From: a virus
Strand: one strand, 5' to 3'
DNA length: 64,000 bases
IMG/VR virus record: IMGVR_UViG_3300033273_000658
Location: 64,001 to 128,000 of that record
Below the pieces are notes generated by a model that worked only from the letters and a program-made list of their open reading frames with translations, had not been told where the DNA came from and searched no databases. Position 1 is the stretch's first letter; each line of letters starts with the position of its first letter. Both the position numbers and the translations under genes were made by a program. This document shows, in pieces, positions 1,304 through 32,064 of the stretch.

Positions 1304-1498
1304 ATGGTAGGAAGATTAGTAAAATGGATTCACGATGAGATGCCAACAAATCTTTGTGTAATAATTGATGATTTAGGGTACAAAGAAGATCATATAGTTT
1401 TATCCGAAGAAGAAGAAAATGAAATGCTTTTTCTTTGTTATGACTTTGTAACAAACGAACAATTTTATGCTTTGGAGAATGAACTCCAGTTTATTTAG
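1304..1498 (+). CDS. Hypothetical protein; the last base of its stop codon is the first G of tmRNA
   Basis: ATG after GAGGAGG; TAG at 1496-1498. Confidence 0.6.
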   Translation: MVGRLVKWIHDEMPTNLCVIIDDLGYKEDHIVLSEEEENEMLFLCYDFVTNEQFYALENELQFI

Positions 1499-1883
1499 GG
1501 GGCGCAATGGTTTCGACAGGGTAGACATGAAGGACAAGTGCAAGTAGGTAAGAACGACCTTAACAGTTTAAAAAAATTATAATTGCCAATAATAACAATT
1601 ATTTCGAAGTAGCTCAAGCAGCTTAATCGGGTGGTTTCTTTATACCATCAGTCCAAATAAAGATAGTCAGATGGGTGAGACGATAAAGTTATAAGGGAGT
1701 CTAGCGGACTTTGCCGTACCTAAAATGGTTACCCTGTTGGTAGCAGGTGGAACTCTAAGGCTACACAAGAGTTGGTTGGAAAAAAGGTAGCTACTTTGTT
1801 TGTTTAGAGAAACAAAATAAACTTGTGAACGACTTTAATTTATGATGCGCTGGACAGCAGTTCAATTCTGCTCGCCTCCACCA
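1498..1883 (+). ncRNA. ssrA: tmRNA, tag peptide ANNNNYFEVAQAA* (1585-1626)
   Basis: 5' GGGGGCG..GGTTTCGAC; 3' T-arm GCAGTTCAATTCTGC then CGCCTCC-A-CCA; acceptor stem has the G3.U alanine identity pair; resume codon GCC after ATAATT; tag ends in AA. Confidence 0.95.
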
Positions 1884-7200: not shown

Positions 7201-7641
7201 CTCGCTGAAAACATTGAGGCGTATAAGGAGGCCGGCGACTTCTCAAAAGACGATAGAGTTGAATTTCTTACGGAATTAACGGGTATTTTCCCTATGAATC
7301 TTGTTGCTCCGGAAGAAGTACAACAGTCTCTTGCTAAGTTCTGTGTTCCGCCTATCTCTGAGTTTGATCCTGCACTTGGTGCATGTTGGGGCATACCTCG
7401 CAATGTAAATCTTCGTAAGTCAAAGAATGGTAAGTGGTTTGCGGTTATCGATCTGATTGATTCAAATAGTAAACTTACAAAACTTCGGTATTGGGGTGTA
7501 AATAAAGATACTATTCGTGATGAGATTCTCTTGAACGAAGTTTACATCATCAAGCCACAATACTCTGATGGTTGGGGATTCTCAACAAGAGGTCATGTTG
7601 ATAAAACATGGAAACGTATGACAACAAATAAGGAGGAATAA
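4216..7641 (+). CDS. dnaE: DNA polymerase III alpha subunit (family C)
   Basis: PHP domain (HAHS..DG, ALTDHG, ADSHY), GRGSAAGSLVAY, catalytic PDIDYD, KFDILGL, FQEQ, GYGFNKSHA. Confidence 0.95.
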   Translation: MKNIKFVGLHAHSGVGSPFDGFGYPQEHMDFCYENGGRALALTDHGNMNGFAYQILHANKMAKEGKDFKPIFGVEAYFINDVEQWRKEYEEHKADKKKAKELSDKQSGVNVEEEGATKSKGRSINRSRHLVLLAMNQTGLNNIFKLVSESYSGKYFYRKPRMDYNLLSKYSDGVIAMSACLGGVYAGCYWENVEDGEEAVLNCMRETTRTMVGIFGDRWYGELQWNAVPEQHALNKYIIQMHKEFGIKLVSTADSHYPTPTAWKDRELYKRLGWLGRGAPEWLDMTLPGSVQDMDYELYPKNGEQMWEDFKKYSEAYDYDEQLILNSIEESHRIAFERIEQFIPDTTVRLPDFVVPAGRDEDDYLRDLSLGGLSHLRKDKGDYISRINHELKVIADRGFSKYFLTMKAISDKTNEVQLAGPGRGSAAGSLVAYALGITQVDPIEYGLLFSRFLRSDATDYPDIDYDVSDPMVLKDMLIEEWGDDVVVPISNWNTLQLRSLLKDISKFYEIPFNEVNAVTNVMMKEATPAAKRKHGIKAGVYTPTFEETIEFSDTLRAFLNKYPHVADHVMALYGSYRSCSRHAGGVVVGEQLNKYMPLISSKGVRQTPWSEGQNVRQLEPLGFIKFDILGLSTLRMIEDCIRRVLINNGTKNPTFAQIKSFYDQNLHPDVIDLNDEDVYENIFHQGKWAGIFQFTEKGAQSFAVRAQPKSIIDIAAITSIYRPGPLSAGVDKQYVAAINDTLSISYLHELVEEVTKETYGFLIFQEQIALLAYKLGENISMDEANLLRKVLTKKGTGKGHEIKEAIKEKFITGCEKKDIKKEDAEQLWATFEYFSGYGFNKSHAVSYSIISFQCAWLYNYFPTEWMCSFLDREPDTRKEKAINIAKSHGFSISDIDINVSGESWEATDATNLVAPLTTIKGLGDKAIEEIVANRPFETVEDLLFNENVVYRKLNKKSLDALCRGGALDSLIDDRFTGAQHFWAACCQDRPKNLKKLAENIEAYKEAGDFSKDDRVEFLTELTGIFPMNLVAPEEVQQSLAKFCVPPISEFDPALGACWGIPRNVNLRKSKNGKWFAVIDLIDSNSKLTKLRYWGVNKDTIRDEILLNEVYIIKPQYSDGWGFSTRGHVDKTWKRMTTNKEE

Positions 7642-13564: not shown

Positions 13565-15139
13565 ATGTCAAAACAATATAGTAACGGGTCTTCTCTTAAC
13601 GAGAAGATCCTTAAAGGTATGAACGTTCTTGCAGACAATGTGGGAACAACCCTTGGTCCAAAAGGACGCAATGTTATTCTTTATGATAAGAAACAAAACA
13701 TCCCTGTGATCACAAAAGATGGTGTAACCATCGCAAAGTTTGTGGAACTTGAAGACCCATTTGAAAACGTCGGTGTTCAAATCCTAAAACAAGCAGCAGA
13801 ACAATCTGCAAACAAAGCTGGTGATGGAACCACAACCACCACCGTCTTGACTAGAGGAATCATCAACAAGGCTCAGAAGTATCTGACCTCTGGTGTTTCT
13901 CCTATTGAACTCAAACGTGGTATGGACAAAGCATGTGAAGTTATCTGTGAGAAACTTGCAGAACATGCGAGACCTATCCAAACAGAAGAAGACATCTTTC
14001 ACATCGCAACTATTTCTGCTAACAACGACAAGTCTATTGGAACATTAATCTCCAAGGCTATCGATGCAGCAGGTAAAGATGGGACAGTTCTTGTTGAAGA
14101 AGCTCGCTCTGTTAATACATCACTTGATCTCATCGAAGGATTTCGTTTCGATAGTGGCTACATTTCGCCCACATTTATCACGAACGAACGCGCTGGTACG
14201 GTAGACTACGATAGTCCTCTTCTGCTCGTTACAGATGAAAAAGTTGAGACAATAGAACAAATTTTACCTACTCTAGAACTGGCTGCGAGAGAGTCTCGTC
14301 CTCTCATTATTGTTGCTGGTGAAATGGAAGGTCAAGCGTTGGCTGCTGTGATTGCAAATGCTGTCCGTGGCACAATGAAAGTTGCTGCTGTCAAGGCTCC
14401 GAGATACGGAGAAGAAAGACGTAACATCCTCAAAGACCTTTGTGCCTCTGTTGGTGCGACTTTCGTTACAAGAGAAAACGGATTGACCCTGAAAGAAGTT
14501 AAACTAACACACTTCGGTCAATCAAAAAGAATTACAGTATCAAAAGCTTGGACAACAATCGTAGGAGGTAAAGGTGATGAAGAAGAAATTGAAAAGCGTA
14601 TTGAGGCTGTTAAGGCCCTCATTGCTGAAGAAGAGGATCTCCGAGTCTGTGAGCGTCATCAAGAGCGAATCACTAGATTGGCATCCGGAGTGGCCGTTAT
14701 AAAGGTTGGTGCTGCAACTGAGGTTGAAATGATTGAGAAGAAGCATCGTATTGATGATGCTTTGGAAGCTGTTCGTTCGGCACAAGAAGAAGGTATCGTT
14801 CCTGGTGGCGGTGTTTCATTGCTTAAGTCTGTATCTGATATCCAGATTCAAGCAGATAATGATGAGCAAGCCTTGGGTGCCAAGATTGTTGTTGAAGCAG
14901 TTGAAGAACCTATCCGTCAAATGGCAAAGAATGCTGGTCTGTCACCTGACCTTGTTGTTCAGCAAGTTCGTGAGACAACTAGTTTCAATCATGGTATGAA
15001 TTTCTTGACCGGAGACATAGTTAACCTACTAGATTCAGGTGTTATTGACCCAGTTAAAGTTACAAAGTGCGCGTTGCAAAATGCAGTCTCTGTATCATCA
15101 ACTATTATCACAACTAGCCACGCGATTGTGAACTCCTGA
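13565..15139 (+). CDS. groEL: Chaperonin GroEL
   Basis: TLGPKGRNV, ITKDGVTIAK, AGDGTTT, KAPRYG, GIVPGGG, GVIDPVKV; no GGM tail; no groES in this window. Confidence 0.95.
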   Translation: MSKQYSNGSSLNEKILKGMNVLADNVGTTLGPKGRNVILYDKKQNIPVITKDGVTIAKFVELEDPFENVGVQILKQAAEQSANKAGDGTTTTTVLTRGIINKAQKYLTSGVSPIELKRGMDKACEVICEKLAEHARPIQTEEDIFHIATISANNDKSIGTLISKAIDAAGKDGTVLVEEARSVNTSLDLIEGFRFDSGYISPTFITNERAGTVDYDSPLLLVTDEKVETIEQILPTLELAARESRPLIIVAGEMEGQALAAVIANAVRGTMKVAAVKAPRYGEERRNILKDLCASVGATFVTRENGLTLKEVKLTHFGQSKRITVSKAWTTIVGGKGDEEEIEKRIEAVKALIAEEEDLRVCERHQERITRLASGVAVIKVGAATEVEMIEKKHRIDDALEAVRSAQEEGIVPGGGVSLLKSVSDIQIQADNDEQALGAKIVVEAVEEPIRQMAKNAGLSPDLVVQQVRETTSFNHGMNFLTGDIVNLLDSGVIDPVKVTKCALQNAVSVSSTIITTSHAIVNS

Positions 15140-17174: not shown

Positions 17175-17882
17175 ATGTTATTGAGTTTAATTTTGGCTTG
17201 TACTTTAGGGTACAATTATGACAATGAAGGGGTGTCGTTATCGTTTGAACAGACAGCAGCAACTCATTATTTTTATTATGATAAGGCAGTAGAATCTTCC
17301 GTTAGAATTTTATCTTATTCCGGAGAAGAAGAGACTGGACATGCATCTGGCAACTACTTTAAATTGGGACAACACAGATTTATTATTACAGCAGCTCATG
17401 TTGTCACGGATGGAGACGATCTTTATGTTGAAGACTACAAAGATAAAGTGGAACTTGAGATTGTTGGTATTGATGTAGGAAACGATATTGCATTTGCTAT
17501 ACCAAAAAAGAATTTAAAAAGCGCAAAGCCCGTAAACTATAGAACAAATAAAAAACTAAACATTATAGGAGATACGATGGTATACGCAGGGTACCCTGCT
17601 GACTTAAATAAATCTGTATTTCATGGAACAGTTTCTACAGAAGCTAGATATTCTTTTATAATGCAATCTTTTGCTTTACCAGGAGCTTCTGGTTCTGTTG
17701 TTTTTGATAACAAAGGTTTGGCTGTTGGAGTGCTAAGTGCAATCAAGGTGGGGTACTCCGGAATCAGCCCATGGCCTCAGCTACATGGTTCCCTTGTTTA
17801 TGTTAATCGATTGAATTTTTATGACAAATACATGCTAGAGGAGTTGTTGGTGAAGTGGAAAAAATTAAAGTCGGAACTCTGA
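17175..17882 (+). CDS. Secreted/lipoprotein trypsin-like serine protease
   Basis: MLLSLILAC signal; TAAHV, NDIA, PGASGS triad motifs. Confidence 0.85.
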   Translation: MLLSLILACTLGYNYDNEGVSLSFEQTAATHYFYYDKAVESSVRILSYSGEEETGHASGNYFKLGQHRFIITAAHVVTDGDDLYVEDYKDKVELEIVGIDVGNDIAFAIPKKNLKSAKPVNYRTNKKLNIIGDTMVYAGYPADLNKSVFHGTVSTEARYSFIMQSFALPGASGSVVFDNKGLAVGVLSAIKVGYSGISPWPQLHGSLVYVNRLNFYDKYMLEELLVKWKKLKSEL

Positions 17883-18067
17883 TAGAAGACATGGGAAAGA
17901 TGGGAATCATTACTAAAGTCATTACTAGTGGAACACTTAAAACAGATAACGAATTGATTAAGTGGAGAAACAATTATGAAATCTTTTATTCTGATGGAAC
18001 GATAGCAATACTTGGTGAAGCTACACTTCACAGACTTATAGAAAAGGGAGATGTTAAGATCTTATGA
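17855..18067 (+). CDS. Small KOW/SH3-like protein
   Basis: IKVGTLI..MGII pattern. Confidence 0.5.
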   Translation: MEKIKVGTLIEDMGKMGIITKVITSGTLKTDNELIKWRNNYEIFYSDGTIAILGEATLHRLIEKGDVKIL

Positions 18068-18405: not shown

Positions 18406-18580
18406 GCTTGTGTATTTTGAAGACCTTGATGGTCAAATTTACCTGTCTGTTATTCTTGCTGATGGGGTTTCTGGATACGGTGGAGATACGAGAATAATTT
18501 ATGTTATCTACTCAATCGCAAATCGATCCACTTGGTTGGCTTATGAGTCTGAGCTGACTCTAGCCAAAAACTTTACATAA
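18386..18580 (+). CDS. Small KOW/SH3-like protein
   Basis: FGTGELV..ESEL pattern. Confidence 0.5.
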   Translation: MQFGTGELVYFEDLDGQIYLSVILADGVSGYGGDTRIIYVIYSIANRSTWLAYESELTLAKNFT

Positions 18581-18592
18581 CTTTTTTTATCT

Positions 18593-18962
18593 AAGTTACA
18601 TAAAATTTTAACAAACTTCATAAAACATGTCAAACTTTTTATGTAACTTTCTTAAAATTGTCTCTTGCAAGAATCATGCCAAAAATGTTTTACATAACTC
18701 AGACACTGAAATCGTGGCTGCAACTACCTTTAAGGTTGTTTTTGGATCATTGCAAGAACCATGCCAAACTTTTTTTACATAACTTTGAACCATTTTAAGC
18801 AAGTTACATAAAATTTTAACAAACTTCATAAAATGACTTGCAAGAATCGTGCCAATTTTTATTTACATAACTCAGGCATCGAAAACAGCTCTACGAGCTT
18901 CCAAAGGCCAGATCGCTTAACTTTACTATGAAGTTACATAAAATTTTAACAAACTTCATAAA
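18593..18962. repeat. Three exact 32-bp direct repeats AAGTTACATAAAATTTTAACAAACTTCATAAA
   Basis: Copies at 18593, 18801 and 18931; partial inverted and tandem copies nearby. Confidence 0.9.
18665..18872 (-). promoter_or_regulatory. Island A: three sigma54 -24/-12 consensus sites with linked AGTTATGTAA motif
   Basis: Reverse complement of TGGCAY-N5-TTGCAA at 18665, 18750 and 18838. Confidence 0.8.
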
Positions 18963-19057
18963 CTTTAACAAACTTCATAAAAAAAGTGAAGAAAAAGTTT
19001 GACAAGGTTATTTTGCTGGGTTAATGAATATTCTGCAACACAAAACATGGAGACAAC

Positions 19058-19216
19058 ATGAAAGTTGGTGACTTGGTAAAGAATAAATACAACAACAAAG
19101 TTGGGATAATAATCTCACATAGTGGACGGCCACACCGTATACTTGGTGTAATGTACAGTGTGTGGATAGATGGACTTGATGTGCTATTACACGAATCAGA
19201 CTTGGAGGTATTATGA
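19058..19216 (+). CDS. MKxGDLV micro-protein (not in ORF track)
   Basis: MKVGDLVKN...DLEVL*; GGAG RBS after promoter TTGACA at 18999. Confidence 0.7.
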   Translation: MKVGDLVKNKYNNKVGIIISHSGRPHRILGVMYSVWIDGLDVLLHESDLEVL

Positions 19217-19368
19217 TAGGTAGACTTGTGCGTTGCAAATATACAAATGAAATAGGAATAGTGTTGCGTAGGGAAATAACACGCAGAGGAAACTTTCGCT
19301 ACCATGTGTTTATTGGTGGCCATACAGAAAGTTTTCTTCCACATTTCTTGGAGGTGATAGATGAATAA
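19213..19368 (+). CDS. MKxGDLV-family micro-protein
   Basis: MIGRLVRC...FLEVIDE*; ATGA overlap. Confidence 0.7.
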   Translation: MIGRLVRCKYTNEIGIVLRREITRRGNFRYHVFIGGHTESFLPHFLEVIDE

Positions 19369-19531
19369 AGGTGACTTGGTACGGATAAGACATAACGAAC
19401 ATCAAGGGCTATTCATCCTCATGGAAAAATGTTCGGCTGGTAGCCAGTTCGTGAGACTATATTCTTTGAAATACAACCGCGTATGTTTTGATATGATACG
19501 CTCATTAGAGGTGATAAATGCAGAAAGGTGA
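19361..19531 (+). CDS. MKxGDLV-family micro-protein
   Basis: MNKGDLVRI...SLEVINAER*. Confidence 0.7.
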   Translation: MNKGDLVRIRHNEHQGLFILMEKCSAGSQFVRLYSLKYNRVCFDMIRSLEVINAER

Positions 19532-19667
19532 TTTAGTTAGATGTATATACACTGATGAACTATTGGTCATAACTTCGGAAGAAGTTGACGGCTATTTTGA
19601 TGTGTATGCAGTTGGAAATGGAAACATGTGGCTTATGCCCAAAGAACATTTAGAGGTGATAAAATGA
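19518..19667 (+). CDS. MKxGDLV-family micro-protein
   Basis: MQKGDLVRC...HLEVIK*. Confidence 0.7.
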   Translation: MQKGDLVRCIYTDELLVITSEEVDGYFDVYAVGNGNMWLMPKEHLEVIK

Positions 19668-19849
19668 AAGTAGGTGATTTAAGAGTATTTAAGCCTTGTA
19701 GTTTCTATGCAAACAACATGTTTGTTGTCACACAAGTAGACGATATGGACTGCTCAATAACAATAAGAATAATAAAGACAGGAGAAGTGGAATGTTGGGA
19801 TCGAATAATACTTCTTCACGACAGTAAATCCGTATCGGTCAAAAAATAA
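19664..19849 (+). CDS. MKxGDLV-family micro-protein
   Basis: MKVGDLRVF; start after GAGGTGAT. Confidence 0.7.
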   Translation: MKVGDLRVFKPCSFYANNMFVVTQVDDMDCSITIRIIKTGEVECWDRIILLHDSKSVSVKK

Positions 19850-19858
19850 ACTTTTTTC

Positions 19859-19887
19859 TTGACAAAATAATTGCAACACATTAAGCT
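19859..19887 (+). promoter_or_regulatory. Early promoter cassette (representative; relatives at 21166, 23598, 25071, 26320, 27771, 28465, 28841)
   Basis: T-tract-C-TTGACA-17-TAAG(G/C)T (TATTAT at 28841), A/C-rich leader, GGAG RBS. Confidence 0.8.
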
Positions 19888-19916
19888 ATAATTGCCAATC
19901 AAAACATGGAGACAAA

Positions 19917-20660
19917 ATGAACATAGAAAAAACAAAAGAGATTCTGCTAGGAAGAATAAACAAACTGACAGAAGAAGAAAGAGAGTGGATGTACGAAAAC
20001 AATAGAGCATGGTATAACAAATACCTTTTTGATAGTCCGTACCAAAAAGAAGAATACTCCAACTTACAATGGGAAGCTATGTGGCTATGGTCATCCTTTG
20101 GCCAAGACTACCTTCGCAATAAGTCTTTGGCAAAGAAATTTCTATCTTCGGAGAAGAAGATGAATCAAGTCATGGATATGATGCAAGACCGCAAGAAGTG
20201 GTATAATACTCGTGTCGATGAAATAAAGCAGCTACATGCGACTGGTAAGCTCACACAAGAGATTATGGCTTTCTTCATAAGCATGTTTCGCAAAGAAAAC
20301 TTCAATGTCTTTGAGAGCTATGTTAAAGACCCAATCTTTGACACTGGTGCAATTGTGCAGTTTCGCTCCAACATTGGTGTAGACGCAGTTCTTCAAGAAC
20401 ATAAGTATAGTGGTGGCACACAGTATTACGGAGCGAATCATAGTACAATGCGAGAACTTAAGCAAAAGACCATGATGGTGCTGGGTGAAAGTCCACCGTT
20501 GGGCGGCAAGATTTATGCTAGTGCCTATTCTCATAAAGAGAAACAAGGTGGTTCACGCTTGTATCGTGTTCTTCCTATCGGAGACACAAAAGTGTATATT
20601 GTTGTGGAGAAGTTCCTTAAGAAGTGTAGAACAAAGGCAGTGAAAGATGCAAAGAAGTGA
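19917..20660 (+). CDS. Hypothetical protein with C-terminal SH3-like segment
   Basis: First gene after cassette; FDTGAIVQF..YRVL..EKFLK. Confidence 0.65.
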   Translation: MNIEKTKEILLGRINKLTEEEREWMYENNRAWYNKYLFDSPYQKEEYSNLQWEAMWLWSSFGQDYLRNKSLAKKFLSSEKKMNQVMDMMQDRKKWYNTRVDEIKQLHATGKLTQEIMAFFISMFRKENFNVFESYVKDPIFDTGAIVQFRSNIGVDAVLQEHKYSGGTQYYGANHSTMRELKQKTMMVLGESPPLGGKIYASAYSHKEKQGGSRLYRVLPIGDTKVYIVVEKFLKKCRTKAVKDAKK

Positions 20661-20841
20661 TTTCAAGAAAGGCGATCTGTTCAGATACAATAAAGGTATG
20701 TCTATCCATGATGACGTTCATGGGCTTATAGGCATTGTGCTTGCTCCAATCAATCAGTTTGGACAATACAAAGTGCAAGTAGCGCACAAAACATTGTGGG
20801 TTCCTTTTTGTTCCTTGGAGGTGTTAGATGAAGAAAGGTGA
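20647..20841 (+). CDS. MKxGDLV-family micro-protein
   Basis: FKKGDLFRY..GIV..SLEVL. Confidence 0.7.
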   Translation: MQRSDFKKGDLFRYNKGMSIHDDVHGLIGIVLAPINQFGQYKVQVAHKTLWVPFCSLEVLDEER

Positions 20842-20992
20842 TGTGGTAATACCAGTCAGTAAAGATTTAGATAAGACACCTATGATCTACATGGGAATAG
20901 GTTTGTGGACTGGGTGGATACGCGTGTATTGTCCAGCAGATGGACAGATAATACAGGTTAGAAAAACATTCGTACAAAAGGTGGAAGTATGA
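20828..20992 (+). CDS. MKxGDLV-family micro-protein
   Basis: MKKGDVVI...QKVEV*. Confidence 0.65.
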   Translation: MKKGDVVIPVSKDLDKTPMIYMGIGLWTGWIRVYCPADGQIIQVRKTFVQKVEV

Positions 20993-21156
20993 AAGTAGGT
21001 GATCTGGTACAGATGAAAGACACACGCTACCACAAAGAGATAGGTGTGGTCATAAAAACTTTTTTCCATGGCGATTGGCGAATAGAGGTTCATTGGGCTG
21101 ATGGTCGTGTGTTGTGGGAATCAAAGCTGGACTTAATACCTGTTGAAAAAACTTAG
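20989..21156 (+). CDS. MKxGDLV-family micro-protein
   Basis: MKVGDLVQM..IGVV..VHWADG. Confidence 0.7.
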   Translation: MKVGDLVQMKDTRYHKEIGVVIKTFFHGDWRIEVHWADGRVLWESKLDLIPVEKT

Positions 21157-21224
21157 AATTTTTTCTTGACAAGATTTGCTCAATCAGATAAGGTATAAAT
21201 ATAACATCAAAACATGGAGGCAAC

Positions 21225-21578
21225 ATGGCTTACATCAAACCAAAAATGAATGTGTTCTTCGCCAATGGTGGCAAGGCAATAACGGCAGTCATAGACAAGA
21301 TTGCATTTCGCAAGTACATGACAAAACCATACAAAGATCCAAAGACAGGTGAAACCAAACGTAGACAGAAGTCTATGCCGTTCGCAGTGTGTCGTGTGAT
21401 TCTATCTCTTGATCCATCGGTGAATGTGAATGAGACATTCCTTATCGCTGGTTATCAGCTTGAAAATGTAGTTATCAAGAATGAGAAGATGCTCACATTC
21501 AAAAGCGACTACGTTGCAGAGTATGCAAAAGACTATGGTAACGAATGGGTTAGGAGAATAATCAATGAAGATAGGTGA
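21225..21578 (+). CDS. Hypothetical protein
   Basis: First gene after cassette 21166. Confidence 0.65.
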   Translation: MAYIKPKMNVFFANGGKAITAVIDKIAFRKYMTKPYKDPKTGETKRRQKSMPFAVCRVILSLDPSVNVNETFLIAGYQLENVVIKNEKMLTFKSDYVAEYAKDYGNEWVRRIINEDR

Positions 21579-21741
21579 TTTAGTAAAATGTATAGAAACA
21601 GACTACGGAATAGGTATAATCACAATGAAAAGACCTTTTGGTGGTTTTATAGTGTGTTTTCCAAACTCAAAGTTAAAACATAGCGACAAGTGTATTGGTT
21701 TATCAAGAGGAAACTTGGAGGTGATCAATGAAAAAAGGTAG
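21565..21741 (+). CDS. MKxGDLV-family micro-protein
   Basis: MKIGDLVKC..GIGII..NLEVINEKR*. Confidence 0.7.
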   Translation: MKIGDLVKCIETDYGIGIITMKRPFGGFIVCFPNSKLKHSDKCIGLSRGNLEVINEKR

Positions 21742-21895
21742 TTTAGTGAGAATAAAACATTCAGCAGATATGAAACTCATAGGCACATTCGGTATTGTTT
21801 TGGGAGATTTGCAACATGGTCATATCATGATAAAGCGTTTTGTGGATGGTCGTAGAGATACCTATCATCAATCTAGATTGGAGCTGATAGCATGA
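21728..21895 (+). CDS. MKxGDLV-family micro-protein
   Basis: MKKGSLVRI..FGIV..RLELIA*. Confidence 0.7.
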   Translation: MKKGSLVRIKHSADMKLIGTFGIVLGDLQHGHIMIKRFVDGRRDTYHQSRLELIA

Positions 21896-22077
21896 AGATA
21901 GGTGATTTAGTTAGGGTAAACAGTGTTTTCTCTTGGGAACATCAAAAATACTTAGGCAAGATAGGTGTATTGAGGCGCAAAGCAGTAGGTACGGATAGTG
22001 TTTGGCTTGTGTACATAGATGGAAAAACATTATTATTAAGAGATGATAGATTAGAGGTGATAAATGAAAGTAGGTGA
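21892..22077 (+). CDS. MKxGDLV-family micro-protein
   Basis: MKIGDLVRV..RLEVINESR. Confidence 0.7.
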   Translation: MKIGDLVRVNSVFSWEHQKYLGKIGVLRRKAVGTDSVWLVYIDGKTLLLRDDRLEVINESR

Positions 22078-22288
22078 TTTAGTAAAGGTGTCCAACAAAG
22101 GGTTCACAGCGATAGGGTTCATCAAAAATATTATGAAAAGCCAGATGGGTGAATTTTTCATGGTACATTACCTTACCACCAATGGAGTCCCAAACTTTCG
22201 TGGATACACCAATGGTGGGCTGTGGTCAAAGAAGTATCTGCAATTATTAAAGGAGGTGGAAGATGAAAAAGATATTAGCAAGACATAG
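22064..22288 (+). CDS. MKxGDLV-family micro-protein
   Basis: MKVGDLVKV..IGFI. Confidence 0.7.
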   Translation: MKVGDLVKVSNKGFTAIGFIKNIMKSQMGEFFMVHYLTTNGVPNFRGYTNGGLWSKKYLQLLKEVEDEKDISKT

Positions 22289-22451
22289 AGACAAGGAAGT
22301 TTTCAATAAGATCGGCTTTGGAATAGTCACTGAGGATCTTGACGAGACAAAGTGCAAAGTGAAATGGCTGAAAAGCCAGTATGAAACTCTACAACTGAAA
22401 AATTACATCTTTTTGCTTGACGAACAGGCAGAGAACGGCTATATTGAATAG
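22263..22451 (+). CDS. Hypothetical protein, paralog of 16553..16765
   Basis: GFGIV.ED..VKW. Confidence 0.6.
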   Translation: MKKILARHRDKEVFNKIGFGIVTEDLDETKCKVKWLKSQYETLQLKNYIFLLDEQAENGYIE

Positions 22452-22620
22452 ACACAACAGGAGACAACATGTTAGATACAATAGAGAAATGTTATTATGT
22501 GAGCAGTGATAGACTGCATGAGAGTAAACCAATGACTATGTTTCAAGCTTTACGGTTTGCAGATAGTTTAGAGAGACAAGGACACAAGAACGTGTTCTTT
22601 TACAAGGGGCAGTTAGCGAT

Positions 22621-22800
22621 ATGAAGATAGGTGACTTGGTAAAACTGGAATACAAAGGCGTAGATCTTGATGAGAAAGATAGATTGAAGATTGGTATTGT
22701 GGTCAACAATACCATCACAACTTTACAACTGGCCAAGGTTCTTTGGAGTAATGGCGATCAAACATGGTGTTTATGCGAGCAGTTAGAGGTGATAGCATGA
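22621..22800 (+). CDS. MKxGDLV-family micro-protein
   Basis: MKIGDLVKL..IGIVV..QLEVIA*. Confidence 0.7.
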   Translation: MKIGDLVKLEYKGVDLDEKDRLKIGIVVNNTITTLQLAKVLWSNGDQTWCLCEQLEVIA

Positions 22801-22976
22801 AAATAAAAGTAGGAAGTTTAGTACAGATACAAAACTTTGCAAAGTACAGTGGAATGATTGGGATTGTCATATACGTTTGTAGACGAGCAGGTTTTGTCGA
22901 TAGTTACGCAGTAAAGATCCCGAACACCACATACGAGTTAGGTGTGGCGAGAGAACAACTCAAGGCGTTAGCATGA
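22797..22976 (+). CDS. MKxGDLV-family micro-protein
   Basis: MKIKVGSLVQI..IGIV. Confidence 0.7.
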   Translation: MKIKVGSLVQIQNFAKYSGMIGIVIYVCRRAGFVDSYAVKIPNTTYELGVAREQLKALA

Positions 22977-23128
22977 AAGTAGGTGATTTGGTTAAACACA
23001 TGGGGCATGGTCGCATTGGTGTTATTCTTAGAGATCTAGTTCCCAATGCTAGGGTTAAAAGGTATCTTGTTCATTGGGGTGACTATCAGTCATCACAAGT
23101 AGTATGGGCTTTGGAGGTGATAGCATGA
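22973..23128 (+). CDS. MKxGDLV-family micro-protein
   Basis: MKVGDLVKH..IGVI..ALEVIA*. Confidence 0.7.
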   Translation: MKVGDLVKHMGHGRIGVILRDLVPNARVKRYLVHWGDYQSSQVVWALEVIA

Positions 23129-23304
23129 AGAAAGGTGATTTAGTAACGGAGAAGTGGCGCATGTGGCGAAACATAGGTATCGTCAAGAGAGTAGGCAAAG
23201 ACGGATATACAAAGGTTAAATGGATCTTGAAAGCAGATCCAGTAGCTGACGATCAGTTTACCAGTGTGTTCGTTGTAATAGGAGAGATCAATGAAAGTAG
23301 GTGA
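23125..23304 (+). CDS. MKxGDLV-family micro-protein
   Basis: MKKGDLVT..IGIV..VKW. Confidence 0.7.
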   Translation: MKKGDLVTEKWRMWRNIGIVKRVGKDGYTKVKWILKADPVADDQFTSVFVVIGEINESR

Positions 23305-23446
23305 TTTGGCAGAATATTATTTACGTCCAAAAAGCTGGGGCATTATTGTAGGGATAGATACCTTTGAGTATGAGATGTTTTGGATGGATGGAAGCCGTGG
23401 ATGGATCTCAAAACGATCAATGGTCAAGAAAAGAGGTGATCAATGA
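23291..23446 (+). CDS. MKxGDLV-family micro-protein (tandem duplicate 1)
   Basis: MKVGDLAE..WGIIV..DTFEYEMFWMDG. Confidence 0.7.
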   Translation: MKVGDLAEYYLRPKSWGIIVGIDTFEYEMFWMDGSRGWISKRSMVKKRGDQ

Positions 23447-23589
23447 AAGTAGGTGATTTAGCAGAACACCACATCAACTCTTGGTGTTGGGGTATTATTG
23501 TGGCGATGGATACCTTTGAGTATGAGGTGTTTTGGATGGACGGAGAACGCTCTTGGGTAAGAAAAGAAATCATGGTCAAAAAATTATAG
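23443..23589 (+). CDS. MKxGDLV-family micro-protein (tandem duplicate 2)
   Basis: MKVGDLAE..WGIIV..DTFEYEVFWMDG. Confidence 0.7.
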   Translation: MKVGDLAEHHINSWCWGIIVAMDTFEYEVFWMDGERSWVRKEIMVKKL

Positions 23590-23655
23590 CTTTTTTCTTG
23601 ACAAAATAATTCCAATCCTATAAGGTATAAACATAACATCAAAACAGGAGACGAC

Positions 23656-24576
23656 ATGAAACTAGGTTACGCATGTATCAACAAAGGACTATCTGAACAG
23701 TCCATCAAAAACCGTATCACAACCAACCGTACATTTCGCAAGGCTACCTTTGAAGAGAAAGGTTTACCTCATGCGTCTGCTATCTTCTTACAGAACAGTA
23801 AAGACTTGCTTAAGATCCTCCAATGGAACGAGCAACACAACATCAAGTTCTTTCGCTTGTCCTCGCAGATTGTATCGTGGGCTACGGAGTATCAGCTCAC
23901 TGACTTGCCAGACTACGATCAGATTGAAGAAGTTCTTTTTGAGTGTGGTCTATTCATCGAAGAGCATGGTATGCGTGTCACATCACATCCCGATCACTTT
24001 GTCAAACTTGCGTCACCCAATGAGGATGTTGTTCGCAATTCTATTCGTGACTTGGAGATTCATGGTGAGATCTTTGATCTATTGTGCCTACCTCGTACCC
24101 ACTATGCCAAACTGAACATTCATGTTGGCGCGTCCTATGGTGACAAACCCAAGGCTATTGACAACTTTTGTCGTAACGTAGATAGACTATCCGATGCAGT
24201 ACGCTCTCGTTTGACCGTAGAGAATGATGATCGTGCCTCCTTGTACTCTACCCTAGACCTCATGGAAGTTTACAAGCGTGTCGGTACTCCCATCGTACAT
24301 GACCTACACCACCATGGGTTCTGCACTGGTGGTCTATCCAACCCCGATGCTCTTACACTTGCAGTGTCTACATGGGGCGATACTACCCCCGTGGTACACT
24401 ACTCCCAATCCCGTGCCATAGAACACAATGACACGTCCATCAAGGCACATGCACACTCAGACTCATACTGGACACCAGTGGATACATACGGACATGATGT
24501 GGATGTGATGCTTGAATGCAAGCACAAAGAGCTAGGTTTATTCAAGATGCGAGAACTATTAGGAAAAACTATTTAA
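23656..24576 (+). CDS. uvsE: UV DNA damage endonuclease
   Basis: LGYACIN, FFRLSS, HPDHFV.L, NIHVG, LTVENDD, DLHHH, HYSQS, HSD, DVMLECKHKE. Confidence 0.92.
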   Translation: MKLGYACINKGLSEQSIKNRITTNRTFRKATFEEKGLPHASAIFLQNSKDLLKILQWNEQHNIKFFRLSSQIVSWATEYQLTDLPDYDQIEEVLFECGLFIEEHGMRVTSHPDHFVKLASPNEDVVRNSIRDLEIHGEIFDLLCLPRTHYAKLNIHVGASYGDKPKAIDNFCRNVDRLSDAVRSRLTVENDDRASLYSTLDLMEVYKRVGTPIVHDLHHHGFCTGGLSNPDALTLAVSTWGDTTPVVHYSQSRAIEHNDTSIKAHAHSDSYWTPVDTYGHDVDVMLECKHKELGLFKMRELLGKTI

Positions 24577-24590
24577 CAAAGGAGACAACC

Positions 24591-24839
24591 ATGAAAACAG
24601 AAAGAGAACAAGCAATACAAAACCTTATGAAAATAATGCCTGACCATACTGACAGTGCGTTTATAGTTAAACAAGAGGGTGATGATAGTGGCTCGTACCT
24701 ATGTGTGTATGTAGAGCGCACAGAGACAGGTGCAGAGGTATGCAAGACCATCCCAACACCGTTTGAGGGATGGAGAGTGGTGCATGTGTGGTGTCCAGAT
24801 GGGTTCATCAAGCACATACTGGAGAGAACGAGAGAATGA
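24591..24839 (+). CDS. Hypothetical protein
   Basis: ATG after AGGAG. Confidence 0.55.
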   Translation: MKTEREQAIQNLMKIMPDHTDSAFIVKQEGDDSGSYLCVYVERTETGAEVCKTIPTPFEGWRVVHVWCPDGFIKHILERTRE

Positions 24840-25045
24840 AAATAGGCGATCTTGTTGTGTTATCGGCCAAAGGTGCGAAGTTAAAGCACAACCACAATTA
24901 TTATCGTGGCTTTGGAATTATTTTAGAGGTTTACCCAGCGAAAGGATACTATGACTTCGGTATACAGTGGTTTTGCGAGGGTAGATCCACACACAACAAG
25001 AGAGTTTGGTTTAAGAGATACGAGATAAAGAAATTAAAACCTTGA
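24836..25045 (+). CDS. MKxGDLV-family micro-protein
   Basis: MKIGDLVVL..FGII..IQW. Confidence 0.7.
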   Translation: MKIGDLVVLSAKGAKLKHNHNYYRGFGIILEVYPAKGYYDFGIQWFCEGRSTHNKRVWFKRYEIKKLKP

Positions 25046-25129
25046 TTATGAAAAAACTTCAATTTTTTTCTTGACAAAATAATTGTAACCCTATAAGCTA
25101 TAAACACCACACCGAACAACGGAGAAAAA

Positions 25130-25327
25130 ATGATTGGAAAACTAGTAAAACGAAAAGAAAAAAAACACCACAAGTTTTGGGGAGTAGGTATAGTTTTAGA
25201 TTACAGATCCACAGGAAGATTTTACCCCAGTACAGAACTGAAAGTGCATTGGGTTTCCTGTGAAATCGGTTCACAGATTTCTAGCATTGACATTGGGCTT
25301 GTGGAGTTTTTAGATGAAAGCAGGTAG
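25130..25327 (+). CDS. MKxGDLV-family micro-protein
   Basis: MIGKLVK..GVGIV..VHW..VEFLDESR. Confidence 0.7.
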   Translation: MIGKLVKRKEKKHHKFWGVGIVLDYRSTGRFYPSTELKVHWVSCEIGSQISSIDIGLVEFLDESR

Positions 25328-25460
25328 TGTAGTAGAAAATACTTTTGGAGACATTGGTATCGTCATTCGACAGATAGGTGTCGCAGATAGGTGGCTCATT
25401 CAATGGGCTAGTGGAGAAGTTTACGGTATCAATGGATACCAACTAGAGGTGATAGCATGA
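25314..25460 (+). CDS. MKxGDLV-family micro-protein
   Basis: MKAGSVV..IGIV..QLEVIA*. Confidence 0.7.
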   Translation: MKAGSVVENTFGDIGIVIRQIGVADRWLIQWASGEVYGINGYQLEVIA

Positions 25461-25651
25461 AGATAGGTGATTTAGTAAAAGTGACACACAAAGGTAATCG
25501 TACGATTGGATACATCAAAAAGTTTGGACGTTATGGGAAGAGTTATGTTATGGTCGTGTACTTGACTGGCTCTCATGTAGGCAAAGAGCGGTTCTTCTCA
25601 GAAAAAGAAGTCCTACCAATCAATCAACTCATTGGAGAGGAAAGAGCATGA
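25457..25651 (+). CDS. MKxGDLV-family micro-protein
   Basis: MKIGDLVKV..IGYI. Confidence 0.7.
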   Translation: MKIGDLVKVTHKGNRTIGYIKKFGRYGKSYVMVVYLTGSHVGKERFFSEKEVLPINQLIGEERA

Positions 25652-25827
25652 AGATAGGTGATTTAGTTATAGTAAAAGATGTTTTGGGCTACAACACGTA
25701 CATGCAGAACCTTGCCGGTCACATTGGTGTAATTGTCAAGGAAAGGTACAATGAGCATTGGGTGAAAGTCCACATACTAGGAAAAACAAAAAGGATCAGC
25801 ATATATGATTTGAAGGTGATAAAGTGA
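25648..25827 (+). CDS. MKxGDLV-family micro-protein
   Basis: MKIGDLVIV..IGVI..DLKVIK*. Confidence 0.7.
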   Translation: MKIGDLVIVKDVLGYNTYMQNLAGHIGVIVKERYNEHWVKVHILGKTKRISIYDLKVIK

Positions 25828-26000
25828 AGATAGGAACACTATGCGAAGTGGTTGCAATAGCAAGTCATTTTCCATCACAGTTTGGTGATTTAGTGGTCAT
25901 AACAGGATACACACATGGTGTATACATCACTGGAACAAACTTGAAAACAGGCAAAACACATCATTACAACCCAACAGAACTCAAAGAGGTGAAACAATGA
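25824..26000 (+). CDS. MKxGDLV-family micro-protein (GTG start)
   Basis: MKIGTLCEV..ELKEVKQ*. Confidence 0.6.
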   Translation: MKIGTLCEVVAIASHFPSQFGDLVVITGYTHGVYITGTNLKTGKTHHYNPTELKEVKQ

Positions 26001-26296: not shown

Positions 26297-26379
26297 AAAA
26301 ATTATTTTCAACTTTTTTCTTGACAAAACAATTCCAACCCTATAAGGTATAAAGACCAACCCAAACAAACGGAGACAAC

Positions 26380-27310: not shown

Positions 27311-27493
27311 ATGCGTTATTCTCCCCTACATACAGGTGATCTCATACACATGTATGGATTGGAGAGCATGATAGGTGTGGTTGTGCGTGAAAGGCGCGAG
27401 GGTGTGTATGATATACACATCTTCCAAGACAATCGCACATTCACATTCCCTAGGGGTATGCTAGAAAAACTTAAAACAACGGAGATAACATGA
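27311..27493 (+). CDS. Small KOW/SH3-like protein
   Basis: TGDLI..IGVVV..MLEKL. Confidence 0.55.
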   Translation: MRYSPLHTGDLIHMYGLESMIGVVVRERREGVYDIHIFQDNRTFTFPRGMLEKLKTTEIT

Positions 27494-27744: not shown

Positions 27745-27830
27745 ACGGACAAAAAATTTCAACTTTTTTCTTGACAAAATAATTCCAATCCTATAAGCTA
27801 TAAACACTAACCCAAACAAACGGAGTGACC

Positions 27831-30594: not shown

Positions 30595-30833
30595 GCAGAC
30601 CAAAATTGCAGTATAGCAACATAACGTACTACGCAATACAAAGGCAAAAGCTGGAGTTTCCACCAGAACTTGAAGAGTTATCTGAACCTTTGGAAGTCAA
30701 GTCATTGGCTCAAAAGATAGAGGAAGCGCACACAAACCTAGATAGAATAGAATTTTCAAAAAAAAACTTGACAATTCCTATCGAACAGAATAATAGTAAA
30801 TTATCACCCCAACAAGGAGATTCCAATGAGTGA
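30591..30833 (+). CDS. Hypothetical protein
   Basis: ATGA-coupled ORF. Confidence 0.45.
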   Translation: MSRPKLQYSNITYYAIQRQKLEFPPELEELSEPLEVKSLAQKIEEAHTNLDRIEFSKKNLTIPIEQNNSKLSPQQGDSNE

Positions 30834-32064
30834 TAACGAAACAACAGAAAAGTTTGACTTGAACATGCACACTTTCCGTTTGCTACAACAAGAACCGTTC
30901 TTCGCAAGTCTTTCAAGACGTATTCACAAAGCACCATCCAAGCACATTCCAACTGCTGGTGTCCGTATCAATCCACAGTCAGCACAGTTTGAGATGCTTT
31001 ACAATCCAGAGTTCATGGCAAGTCTTACAGACAAGCAAAAGCTTGGTGTTCTAATGCACGAGTTTTACCACATCATCTTTGAGCACGTCACCACACGACT
31101 TCCAGCAGAGGGTATGTCTATGAAGTGGAACGTTGCAACAGACCTTGCAATCAACAGTCACATCATGGACATGTTGCCGGAGGGTGGATGTATCCCATCA
31201 AAGGTTGGCACTCCGTTTGAGAACTATCCTGTCGGTCTATCTGCTGAGGCTTATCTAAAGATAATCGAAGAAGATGAGCAGTTCAAGAAAGACGATGGTC
31301 AAGGCCAAGGTGACGGTCAAGGTGGTCAAGGTGACGGAGATCCATCACAAGGGCAAGGCCAAGGTTCATCGCTGGGCGATCATGTTCTTGACGATCATAG
31401 TGGCTGGGGCGATGTAGATGAAGAGACAAAGGCTATGGCCAAAGAGCGTTTGAAAGACGCTATGGAGAAAGCCGCAAAGGATGCGTCAAGCGGTCAAGGC
31501 TGGGGTTCTGTATCGGCAGACGTTCGTAAGCAGATCATGGACGCTATCACACCGAAGATTGACTGGCGCAAGGTTCTTCGATACTTCATCAAGACCTCAC
31601 AGCGTAGCAACAAGCGATCAACCGTTCGCAGATTGAACCGTAGGTTCCCTTACATTCATGCTGGCCGAAAGGTTACACGTCAAGCCAAGATTGCTATCAG
31701 CATTGACCAATCGGGTTCTGTTTCAGACACCATGCTTGCCTCATTCTTCGCAGAACTCAATAGCCTATCAAGCCTTGCCGAGTTTACCGTTGTGCCTTTC
31801 GATACCGAAGTAGATGAGAGCCTTGTCTACACATGGAAGAAAGGTGAGCGCAAGACATGGGAGCGTGTCAAGTGTGGTGGCACATGCTTTGACGCTCCGA
31901 CACGATACGTCAATGAGAACGGTTTCGATGGTCACATCATCTTGACTGACATGGAGGCTCCAAAGCCGATAGCCAGCAAGTGCCAACGCATGTGGATGAC
32001 TGACCAACGAGGCAAGGAGAACCCTTACTTCACAACCAATGAACGTGTCATAGCGATAGACTAG
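30826..32064 (+). CDS. DUF2201-like zincin plus vWA protein (MoxR partner)
   Basis: HEFYH, WNVATDLAIN, Gly/Gln linker, DDHSGW, MIDAS IDQSGS, GGT, ILTD. Confidence 0.85.
   Translation: MSDNETTEKFDLNMHTFRLLQQEPFFASLSRRIHKAPSKHIPTAGVRINPQSAQFEMLYNPEFMASLTDKQKLGVLMHEFYHIIFEHVTTRLPAEGMSMKWNVATDLAINSHIMDMLPEGGCIPSKVGTPFENYPVGLSAEAYLKIIEEDEQFKKDDGQGQGDGQGGQGDGDPSQGQGQGSSLGDHVLDDHSGWGDVDEETKAMAKERLKDAMEKAAKDASSGQGWGSVSADVRKQIMDAITPKIDWRKVLRYFIKTSQRSNKRSTVRRLNRRFPYIHAGRKVTRQAKIAISIDQSGSVSDTMLASFFAELNSLSSLAEFTVVPFDTEVDESLVYTWKKGERKTWERVKCGGTCFDAPTRYVNENGFDGHIILTDMEAPKPIASKCQRMWMTDQRGKENPYFTTNERVIAID

Follow-up and report, generated by a model that had tools for sequence, protein, structure and literature searches.

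Tandem arrays of short genes for predicted SH3-like small barrels that appear to be exchanged between related phages at their shared junctions

What do long runs of very short genes encode in a phage genome, and why are such genes alike at their ends and hardly alike in between? We addressed this question for a 7-kb array region at positions 19058–26000 of a window of 64,000 nucleotides (nt), which comprises bases 64001–128000 of a 141,005-bp IMG/VR viral contig (CheckV completeness 78%). An earlier note, made from the letters of this DNA, had counted here 24 short open reading frames (ORFs) of an MKxGDLV...LEVI pattern. A motif scan, together with a hidden Markov model (HMM) built from the members, returned exactly 24 plus-strand ORFs of this type, 48–74 amino acids (aa) long (mean 57.5). 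Weighing all of the evidence, we think it likely that they are a lineage-specific multigene family of stand-alone SH3/KOW-like small barrels of ~57 aa, encoded in coupled operons and reshuffled at their junctions, and that the host genome of the array is that of an uncultured marine myovirus of ~185 kb, with the array in a promoter-dense region.

The units fall in six runs: 19058–19849 (five units), 20647–21156 (three), 21565–22288 (four), 22621–23589 (six), 24836–25045 (one) and 25130–26000 (five). Unrelated genes lie between the runs, namely a gene of 247 aa, one of 117 aa, two small ORFs, a UvdE-like gene and one more small ORF. With the UvdE-like neighbor gene as an anchor we located 102 related viral loci, several of them on contigs of 180–192 kb that CheckV rates 100% complete. 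The closest relative, L010, has a UvdE protein 97% identical and backbone DNA ~85% identical to those of the window, with which it is collinear; L014 is another relative. Because a first HMM pass found 16 units in L010, where at least 18 are present, a unit is called absent from L010 only where the nucleotide alignment shows it. The 24 units, numbered throughout by their first position, are:

19058..19216 (+), unit, 52 aa, LEVL end, opens transcription unit 1
19213..19368 (+), unit, 51 aa, start MIGRLV, ATGA overlap upstream; L010 counterpart 89% identical
19361..19531 (+), unit, 56 aa, upstream overlap 8 nt, tail LEVINAER
19518..19667 (+), unit, 49 aa, acidic (isoelectric point, pI, 4.4), upstream overlap 14 nt
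19664..19849 (+), unit, 61 aa, most divergent member, without LEVI ending, closes transcription unit 1
20647..20841 (+), unit, 64 aa, 6-residue N-terminal extension, tail LEVLDEER
20828..20992 (+), unit, 54 aa
20989..21156 (+), unit, 55 aa, closes transcription unit 2; a divergent unit in its place in L010
21565..21741 (+), unit, 58 aa, absent from L010
21728..21895 (+), unit, 55 aa, absent from L010
21892..22077 (+), unit, 61 aa, modelled typical member
22064..22288 (+), unit, 74 aa, long C-terminal tail
22621..22800 (+), unit, 59 aa
22797..22976 (+), unit, 59 aa, start MKIKVGSLV
22973..23128 (+), unit, 51 aa, absent from L010; in L014 at 93% identity
23125..23304 (+), unit, 59 aa
23291..23446 (+), unit, 51 aa, tail KKRGDQ
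23443..23589 (+), unit, 48 aa, recent tandem duplicate of 23291 (interior identity 56%), closes transcription unit 3
24836..25045 (+), unit, 69 aa, solitary, closes transcription unit 4
25130..25327 (+), unit, 65 aa, start MIGKLV; absent at its position in L010
25314..25460 (+), unit, 48 aa
25457..25651 (+), unit, 64 aa
25648..25827 (+), unit, 59 aa, absent from L010
25824..26000 (+), unit, 58 aa, GTG start (ATG in L010); followed with an ATGA overlap by a non-family gene of 99 aa

Across the 24 units G4 is invariant and M1 and L6 are conserved in at least 90%; many units also have a central G-I/V-I/V and a late W. The interiors are as variable as the earlier note had stated, with a mean identity between paralogs of 24.5% vs 22.1% in shuffled controls. 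Nevertheless, when each member was left out in turn from an interior-only HMM, 14 of the 24 ranked in the top 10 of 2,256 ORFs, and the ORFs that outranked left-out members were weak outlying members of the family. Such weaker relatives outside the array region lie at about 996, 16487, 17855 and 27311, among them:

17855..18067 (+), weak outlying family-like ORF (HMM E-value (E) 0.007)
27311..27493 (+), weak outlying family member (HMM E 3e-5)

Adjoining units were 25.8% alike vs 24.4% for distant ones (permutation p = 0.18). Recent local duplication was rejected as the main source of the array since this effect of adjacency is not significant; the exceptions are the pairs 23291/23443, 22621/22797 and 25457/25648.

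The conserved ends meet at 18 gene-to-gene joints. Eleven joints overlap by 4 nt (ATGA), six by 14 nt, where the stop lies within the next gene's GGTGA or its equivalent, and one by 8 nt; at every one of them the last codons of the upstream gene hold a purine run resembling a Shine-Dalgarno (SD) sequence. Stop/start overlap with an SD inside the upstream coding sequence is the geometry of a translationally coupled operon, and we regard the runs as probably coupled. The ATGA and GGTGA overlaps described by the earlier note are thus present. Its 34-nt junction consensus with fixed spacing held up less well, fitting only four joints at ≤3 mismatches, as the distance from SD to ATG falls into two classes. 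Likewise, a scan of viral contigs for the exact junction pattern yielded only five stretches, because spacing and wobble bases vary. An exact LEV[I/L] C-terminus, also part of the described pattern, occurs in 10 of the 24 units, and two more end in LELI or LKVI. The start motif ATGAARRTAGGTGAT occurs 14 times at ≤1 mismatch, where 0.03 occurrences are expected by chance, and the GAGG of GAGGTGAT lies 6–7 nt ahead of the next ATG, the spacing of ordinary initiation.

Codon usage at the unit ends shows what the LEVI codons do. In the ten LEV[I/L] units, glutamate is GAG in 10/10 (genome frequency 0.28), valine is GTG in 9/10 (0.10) and isoleucine is ATA in 7/8 (0.22). In this lineage the codon choice in LEVI is thus imposed by the Shine-Dalgarno sequence of the next gene, in agreement with the earlier note, which had read the LEVI codons as that sequence. 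A LEV-type ending was found in 12 of 18 units that have a coupled family gene next, vs none of the six that end a run. In unit 23291, the next gene's AGAGGTGAT is encoded as R-G-D, in a frame other than that of LEVI, so there the DNA signal is the conserved object. More distant relatives retain L-E-V-I but spell it GAG GTT ATC; LEVI is therefore also a feature of the protein, where it would form the fifth strand in both of the models described below, and the SD dictates the codon choice alone, in this lineage. The tails NESR, NEKR, DEER and DESR of the 14-nt class arise because the next gene's ATG-AAR-RTA-GGT-GA is read one base out of frame.

In and just downstream of the array region we found six near-identical promoter-leader cassettes of ~65 nt on the plus strand (19852, 21159, 23591, 25063, 26313 and 27764). 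In order, each has a T-run, TTGACA, a 17-nt spacer, TAAGGT or TAAGCT with ATAA behind it, and a leader whose last letters are GGAG. A short operon begins with each cassette; its first gene may be unique or a family unit, and the units after that are linked in a chain of overlaps. Matches to a looser promoter form concentrate in the same part of the genome, with 22 of 31 at genome positions 80–100 kb (window 16–36 kb). The cassettes would be sigma70-like promoters and the region is presumably early, as judged from promoter type and gene content. The cassettes, a looser site ahead of the first run, and the non-family genes are:

18999..19057 (+), looser promoter-like site (TTGACA, 17 nt, TAATGA) and GGAG leader ...AAACATGGAGACAACATG, the leader common to the other cassettes
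19852..19916 (+), putative promoter-leader cassette (T-run, TTGACA, 17 nt, TAAGCT, ATAA, GGAG leader)
19917..20660 (+), non-family gene, 247 aa, opens transcription unit 2, no PHROG match; L010 counterpart 90% identical
21159..21224 (+), putative promoter-leader cassette
21225..21578 (+), non-family gene, 117 aa, opens transcription unit 3
22263–22451 (+), small ORF, 62 aa, weak family-like match without the N-terminal motif (HMM E 0.12)
22469–22624 (+), small ORF between sub-arrays; promoter-like TTGACG-17-TATATT upstream at 22417
23591..23655 (+), putative promoter-leader cassette
23656..24576 (+), UV-damage-endonuclease-like (UvdE-like) gene, non-family (phrog_8420, E 2e-47)
25063..25129 (+), putative promoter-leader cassette
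26313..26379 (+), putative promoter-leader cassette
27764..27803 (+), putative promoter cassette core, sixth near-identical copy

In the relatives, the cassettes carry a small GGAC-N7-GTCC hairpin abutting the -35 element, of which the window has a degenerate version, an A6/T6 pair. The last unit of an operon in the relatives typically ends in KKCP (AAA AAA TGT CCT TGA), and its stop is the TGA of the next TTGACA. With the codons AAAAAATGTCCTTGA, the stop thus falls within the -35 TTGACA at positions 5985–5998, 7300–7313 and 9940–9953 of L010, and at 6085, 9935, 11590 and 12305 of another relative, L011. Since units end either in LEVI, on an SD, or in KKCP, on a -35 element, both possible C-termini are written by the downstream regulatory element. 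The locus is a clean natural example of regulatory sequence shaping protein ends, the C-terminus being set by the next ribosome-binding site or the next -35 box.

The earlier note had further proposed that units are duplicated, lost and swapped in register. Consistent with this proposal, the order of the array is not identical between relatives, and comparison with L010 revealed both indels and a replacement. Four unit-exact indels distinguish the window from L010, which lacks 21565 together with 21728, 22973, 25648 and 25130 at the corresponding places. In every case the L010 sequence follows the left flank of the window as far as the start codon and continues with the right flank, and all four breakpoints lie at a shared junction or start: in three of four the switch between flanks falls within the shared ATGAAR-RTAGG(TGATTTAGT), and the fourth is at a start codon behind a promoter cassette. 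The replacement concerns 20989, in whose place L010 has a divergent family member bounded on the left by a junction and on the right by a promoter cassette. A 77% nucleotide match to 25130 is found some 8 kb away in L010 (19291–19507), and L010 also holds two units without a close counterpart in the window. In L014, where content and order differ too, the first operon holds the units most like 22621 and 25130. Few units of the window recur in L011, L012 or L013, which likewise differ in content and order. When the window is compared with L010, per-unit synonymous divergence (dS) spans 0.06 to 1.07, which indicates unit-wise exchange among diverged genomes. Exact shared runs within the window reach 27 nt between pairs of junctions (mean 9.1), and the mean is 5.6 for interior 50-mers. 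Collectively, these comparisons support a cassette-shuffling reading, in which whole units would be gained, lost and replaced in register at junctions.

How might such turnover work? In the scheme that we propose, genes would be chained by translational coupling in short operons, each under a near-identical sigma70-like promoter-leader cassette. Three signals would be superimposed at a junction. The last beta-strand of the upstream protein, LEVI, written as GAG GTG ATA, would supply the GAGGTGAT Shine-Dalgarno sequence 6–7 nt before the next start; the stop would overlap that start either as ATGA or in a 14-nt overlap ending in the next gene's GGTGA; and the start would lead into MKxGDLV, the first beta-strand of the downstream protein with its KOW-like G-D-x-V motif. 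We infer that the 15–27-nt stretch common to all units in register would allow homologous or microhomology recombination between units to add, remove or replace genes, and recombination between promoter cassettes would likewise move whole genes. The shared unit ends would thus also be the places at which recombination exchanges whole genes among relatives, and a unit landing at a junction would automatically be transcribed and translated.

The nearest described mechanism is the shuffling of promoter-early stem-loop (PeSL) cassettes, by which modules are rearranged in hyperplastic regions of T4-type phages (Arbiol et al. 2010, PMC2839356; Comeau et al. 2014, PMC4122927) and for which promoter/terminator activity and excised mini-circles were examined by reporter assays and PCR on phage DNA (PMC2839356). 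As with PeSLs, whose description the present cassettes fit by sequence, repeated sigma70-like promoter cassettes partition a region of small non-essential genes, the hairpin of the relatives abuts the -35 element, and indels and replacements between close relatives end at repeats; the terminase is distantly T4-like. By contrast, the majority of breakpoints here fall within the coding junctions of paralogs (SD, start and the first seven codons) instead of in cassettes between genes, and what is shuffled is a single protein family whose genes are translationally coupled. What sets this locus apart is a second, denser layer of recombination points, within coding junctions that double as coupling signals. 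A different precedent is provided by the genomic accordions and tandem multigene families of large DNA viruses, such as the amplification of poxvirus K3L and the multigene families (MGF) of African swine fever virus (ASFV). There too, paralog copy number changes by recombination between repeats and repertoires are lineage-specific. The units here differ in being ~170 bp long, with ends that double as translation signals, and in that most paralogs are ancient (~25% identity), the pair 23291/23443 alone looking recent.

What, then, do the units encode? Two members, 21892 (typical) and 19664 (most divergent), were modelled by AlphaFold2 with the paralog alignment. The model of 21892 is a five-stranded barrel (predicted local distance difference test, pLDDT, 93.6) and that of 19664 has the same five-strand topology (pLDDT 91.7), with strands at residues 6–9, 19/24–26/30, 31/37–36/42, 42/45–46/50 and 54–56. 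Both models are closed barrels of five antiparallel strands and ~50–60 residues, as predicted for an SH3-like small beta-barrel, and both superpose on the NusG/Spt5 KOW barrel, in line with the KOW/SH3-like fold that the earlier note had suggested from the residue pattern. The top Foldseek matches were Spt5/NusG KOW domains, PetP, SH3 domains and YorP, at template modelling (TM) scores of 0.67–0.79 and E of only ~4e-3; KOW domains were the top PDB matches for the divergent member also, and seven uncharacterised phage proteins matched at E ≤ 1e-3. A VIA-align search of 48,161 chains gave Z 8.1–9.1 over 50–60 residues, at a root-mean-square deviation (rmsd) of 1.5–2.4 Å, to a Mind-bomb (MIB) repeat, DSIF KOW6-7, NusG, PetP, NdhS/Ssl0352 and YorP. 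The KOW matches among these were DSIF KOW6-7 (Z 8.8), Thermotoga maritima NusG (8.5) and Aquifex aeolicus NusG (8.1), with rmsd 1.6–1.7 Å over 50–56 residues. In total 282 PDB chains reached Z ≥ 5, with SH3-like barrels (KOW, PsaE/NdhS/PetP, Tudor, MIB repeat) in the top rows. The assignment of the predicted fold to the class of SH3-like small barrels, KOW-like in form, is well supported by these models; the matches do not settle the superfamily.

Among single-domain proteins of 55–85 aa, YorP of the SPbeta prophage (PF09629), PetP, NdhS/Ssl0352 and PsaE have the same barrel (Z 7.5–8.5). The likeness is at the level of fold only, as no unit has a Pfam match to these families: none of the 24 members matched the profiles of YorP (PF09629) or DUF4314 (PF14192), and the family profile gave E of 0.35–0.8 against PsaE and NdhO. 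The link to YorP is structural, with Z 8.2 to 2HEQ, and YorP/DUF4314 clusters appeared in the ESM Atlas at a feature similarity of 0.90–0.91.

Our best guess is that each barrel acts as a single-domain binder, with a different macromolecule of host or phage as its target, and serves host takeover or counter-defence. Net charge ranges from -5 to +9, with 15 of the 24 units basic (pI above 8) and four acidic; together with the near-random interiors, this range argues against a single shared ligand and for a different partner per unit. Given such a function, the array would be an accessory, fast-turnover repertoire. SH3-like domains are present in the proven phage counter-defence proteins Nip (PMC11984713) and Orf65/TifA (PMC11322646), which we offer as an analogy only. 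These proteins are unrelated to the units in sequence, are larger or multi-domain and do not form a paralog array. Host-takeover and anti-defence clusters also consist of small genes behind strong promoters and ribosome-binding sites that vary between relatives. More speculatively, and with rather less confidence than in the arrangement of the family itself, the junction (SD, start codon and codons of the first beta-strand) may be an integrase-free "plug-and-play" site at which recombination moves whole binder genes, such that abundant marine phages of ~185 kb would, as a clade, have in common a pan-repertoire of hundreds to thousands of SH3-like binder cassettes. Each phage would take its own set from this pool for use against host defences or for takeover, as a phage counterpart to the integron cassette array. 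If units do bind defence or takeover targets, the arrays would constitute a compact natural library of minimal binding scaffolds and a ready marker of strain-level phage diversity.

An alternative, which we consider improbable though it is the strongest of the competing explanations, is that the barrels do not bind diverse targets but modulate transcription or translation, by mimicking or competing with NusG/Spt5 KOW domains or ribosomal KOW proteins, or by binding RNA or DNA. KOW domains (PF00467; NusG/Spt5/RfaH and ribosomal proteins) share the five-stranded SH3-like barrel and the size of the units and match them at Z 8.1–8.8; NusG, RfaH and Spt5 KOW domains and L21e are all among the top structural matches, and the majority of the units are basic. 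The first-strand G-D-x-V, followed by G-x-hydrophobic in the second strand, also resembles a known pattern, the KOW motif of PF00467, to which the G-D-x-V...G-I-V of the units can be likened, although this is a resemblance only. At the sequence level, none of the 24 members matched PF00467 even at E 10, and the family profile searched against the PDB found no KOW protein at E ≤ 1 except L21e (0.25–0.38), and no solved relative. Furthermore, the units are divergent stand-alone ORFs without NGN fusion or ribosomal context, four of them are acidic, and 24 copies with almost random interiors poorly suit one conserved partner surface.

A second alternative is that the array is mostly an evolutionary by-product, in which junction homology lets units duplicate and spread through unequal recombination, each protein contributing little or nothing of its own; this would be a selfish or near-neutral turnover of ORFans in a hyperplastic region. 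The selection and distribution data bear on this alternative. Pooled over interiors, the ratio of nonsynonymous to synonymous substitution (dN/dS) was 0.22 in the comparison with L010 and 0.35 in that with L014, where backbone genes gave 0.10, and several unit orthologs are 94–98% identical in protein at dS 0.06–0.79. By these ratios the units are real proteins under purifying, somewhat relaxed selection, and the word "diversified" in the earlier note, if meant as positive selection, finds no backing. A profile search of 1.84 billion cluster representatives (50% identity) returned 932 matches at E ≤ 1e-3. Short proteins make up 137 of the best 150 matches; 128 of them start with the N-terminal motif, a LEVI-like end is present in 92, and 77 end in xE[S..]R (40 NESR, 23 SESR), the trace that a 14-nt overlap with the next unit leaves, so the array architecture is general for the family. 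All eight related records examined carry family copies, 5–22 each; seven are 180–192 kb long and rated 100% complete, and the eighth, the contig of L010, is 49% complete. The two nearest cultured phages had no family copies in a whole-genome search, neither megablast of the 7-kb region nor tblastn of one unit matched any of 50,697 cultured-phage records, and in the literature on tandem small SH3-like phage gene families we found no description of this one. Unannotated small phage genes are the largest block of unknown function in viromes, and this family amounts to at least 932 clusters, with up to 24 slots per genome in a widespread clade of marine phages and no Pfam or PHROG entry.

A by-product would explain why presence and absence vary widely among close relatives, why copy number in related complete genomes runs from 5 to 22, and why unit dN/dS is 2–3 times that of backbone genes. 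It fits poorly with ratios far below 1 and the closely similar orthologs, with a core hydrophobic pattern and predicted fold kept at ~25% identity, and with persistence of the family across the 932 clusters; we therefore judge it to be somewhat less probable still than modulation through KOW-like barrels.

Could the transcript rather than the peptides be the functional product? The earlier note had suggested that the doubled AGGTGAT makes the mRNA a ribosome sink, and one might extend this to a standby platform with incidental peptides. On the plus strand of the 141-kb genome, 23 of 34 AGGTGAT sites and 9 of 9 GAGGTGAT sites indeed lie inside the 7-kb array region, and the N-terminal codons exceed the genome background for GGT (19/24), A-ending third codons (15 of 17 V/I cases) and TTR leucine (16/22). 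Part of this N-terminal excess is shared with unrelated genes here, in which A/T-rich codons at positions 2–8 are also favored, and an SD spacing of 6–7 nt is the one required for ordinary coupled initiation. The second AGGTGAT is tied to the lineage's A-ending third codon: more distant relatives have GTC GGT GAT at the start-proximal site and, with their GAG GTT ATC at the unit end, break both extended sites while keeping the protein motifs. The doubled AGGTGAT is hence a lineage-specific spelling and not a family property, so the ribosome-sink idea loses its basis; as the interiors are moreover under purifying selection, an RNA-level function seems to us very improbable. Least probable of all is that a dedicated hypermutation system, such as a diversity-generating retroelement, made the variable interiors between conserved ends, given that no reverse transcriptase (PF00078) was detected in the 141-kb record (78% complete; search controls positive), that the variation spans the whole interior including changes in length, and that orthologs are conserved.

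We thus favor stand-alone small barrels, probably binders of different partners, encoded in coupled operons that are reshuffled at their junctions, and several points weigh against this reading. Interior homology is weak: the interior-only HMM misses about six members, including 20828, 25824 and the modelled 19664, and the fold prediction for 19664 therefore leans on the end-anchored alignment. A Z of 8–9 is just above the level that VIA-align calls common for small barrels. As to function, Pfam and PHROG gave no significant family match for any of the 24 units, a search for named homologs returned only the name "hypothetical protein", and an average dN/dS below 1 gives no signal of an arms race or positive selection. 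The relatives are metagenome-assembled contigs, in which the indels are unpolarised as gain or loss, and the presumed early timing is read from promoter-like sequence.

The family also occurs in other protein forms. Database entries include in-frame fusions of two units (91–127 aa) and long proteins with 3–6 tandem modules (322–905 aa), among P0005, P0010, P0016, P0023, P0063 and P0110. P0067 has identical long repeats and seems to belong to a different context, possibly a transposon-related one.

With regard to the genome as a whole, every long ORF of the contig is on the plus strand. Among sequencing runs, DNA runs shared only 8–13% of the words. The phage is a myovirus, since genes for a T4-like large terminase, a portal, a major head protein and a tail sheath are present on the contig. 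A gene for a DnaE-type polymerase is present too. The best matches of the terminase in cultured phages, Flavobacterium phage immuto (45.5%) and Microcystis phage Mel-JY01 (43.3%), are not close. A link to photosynthesis is unsupported because psbA is absent from the phage record and from four complete relatives. Elsewhere in the window we noted a GroEL-type chaperonin gene (13565–15139, plus strand; phrog_5725, E 1e-137), an HNH endonuclease gene of 412 aa (30826–32064, plus strand; phrog_1314, E 7e-57) whose protein is 98% identical to its L010 counterpart, and a one-piece full-length transfer-messenger RNA (1498–1883, plus strand; Rfam RF00023, 101.9 bits) with the tag peptide ANNNNYFEVAQAA according to ARAGORN. 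Lastly, the gene-free stretch at 18560–19000, upstream of the first array, contains three to four copies of a ~32-nt repeat, AAGTTACATAAAATTTTAACAAACTTCATAAA, and three copies of CTTGCAAGAAYCRTGCCAA, which resembles a possible RpoN -24/-12 site on the minus strand.

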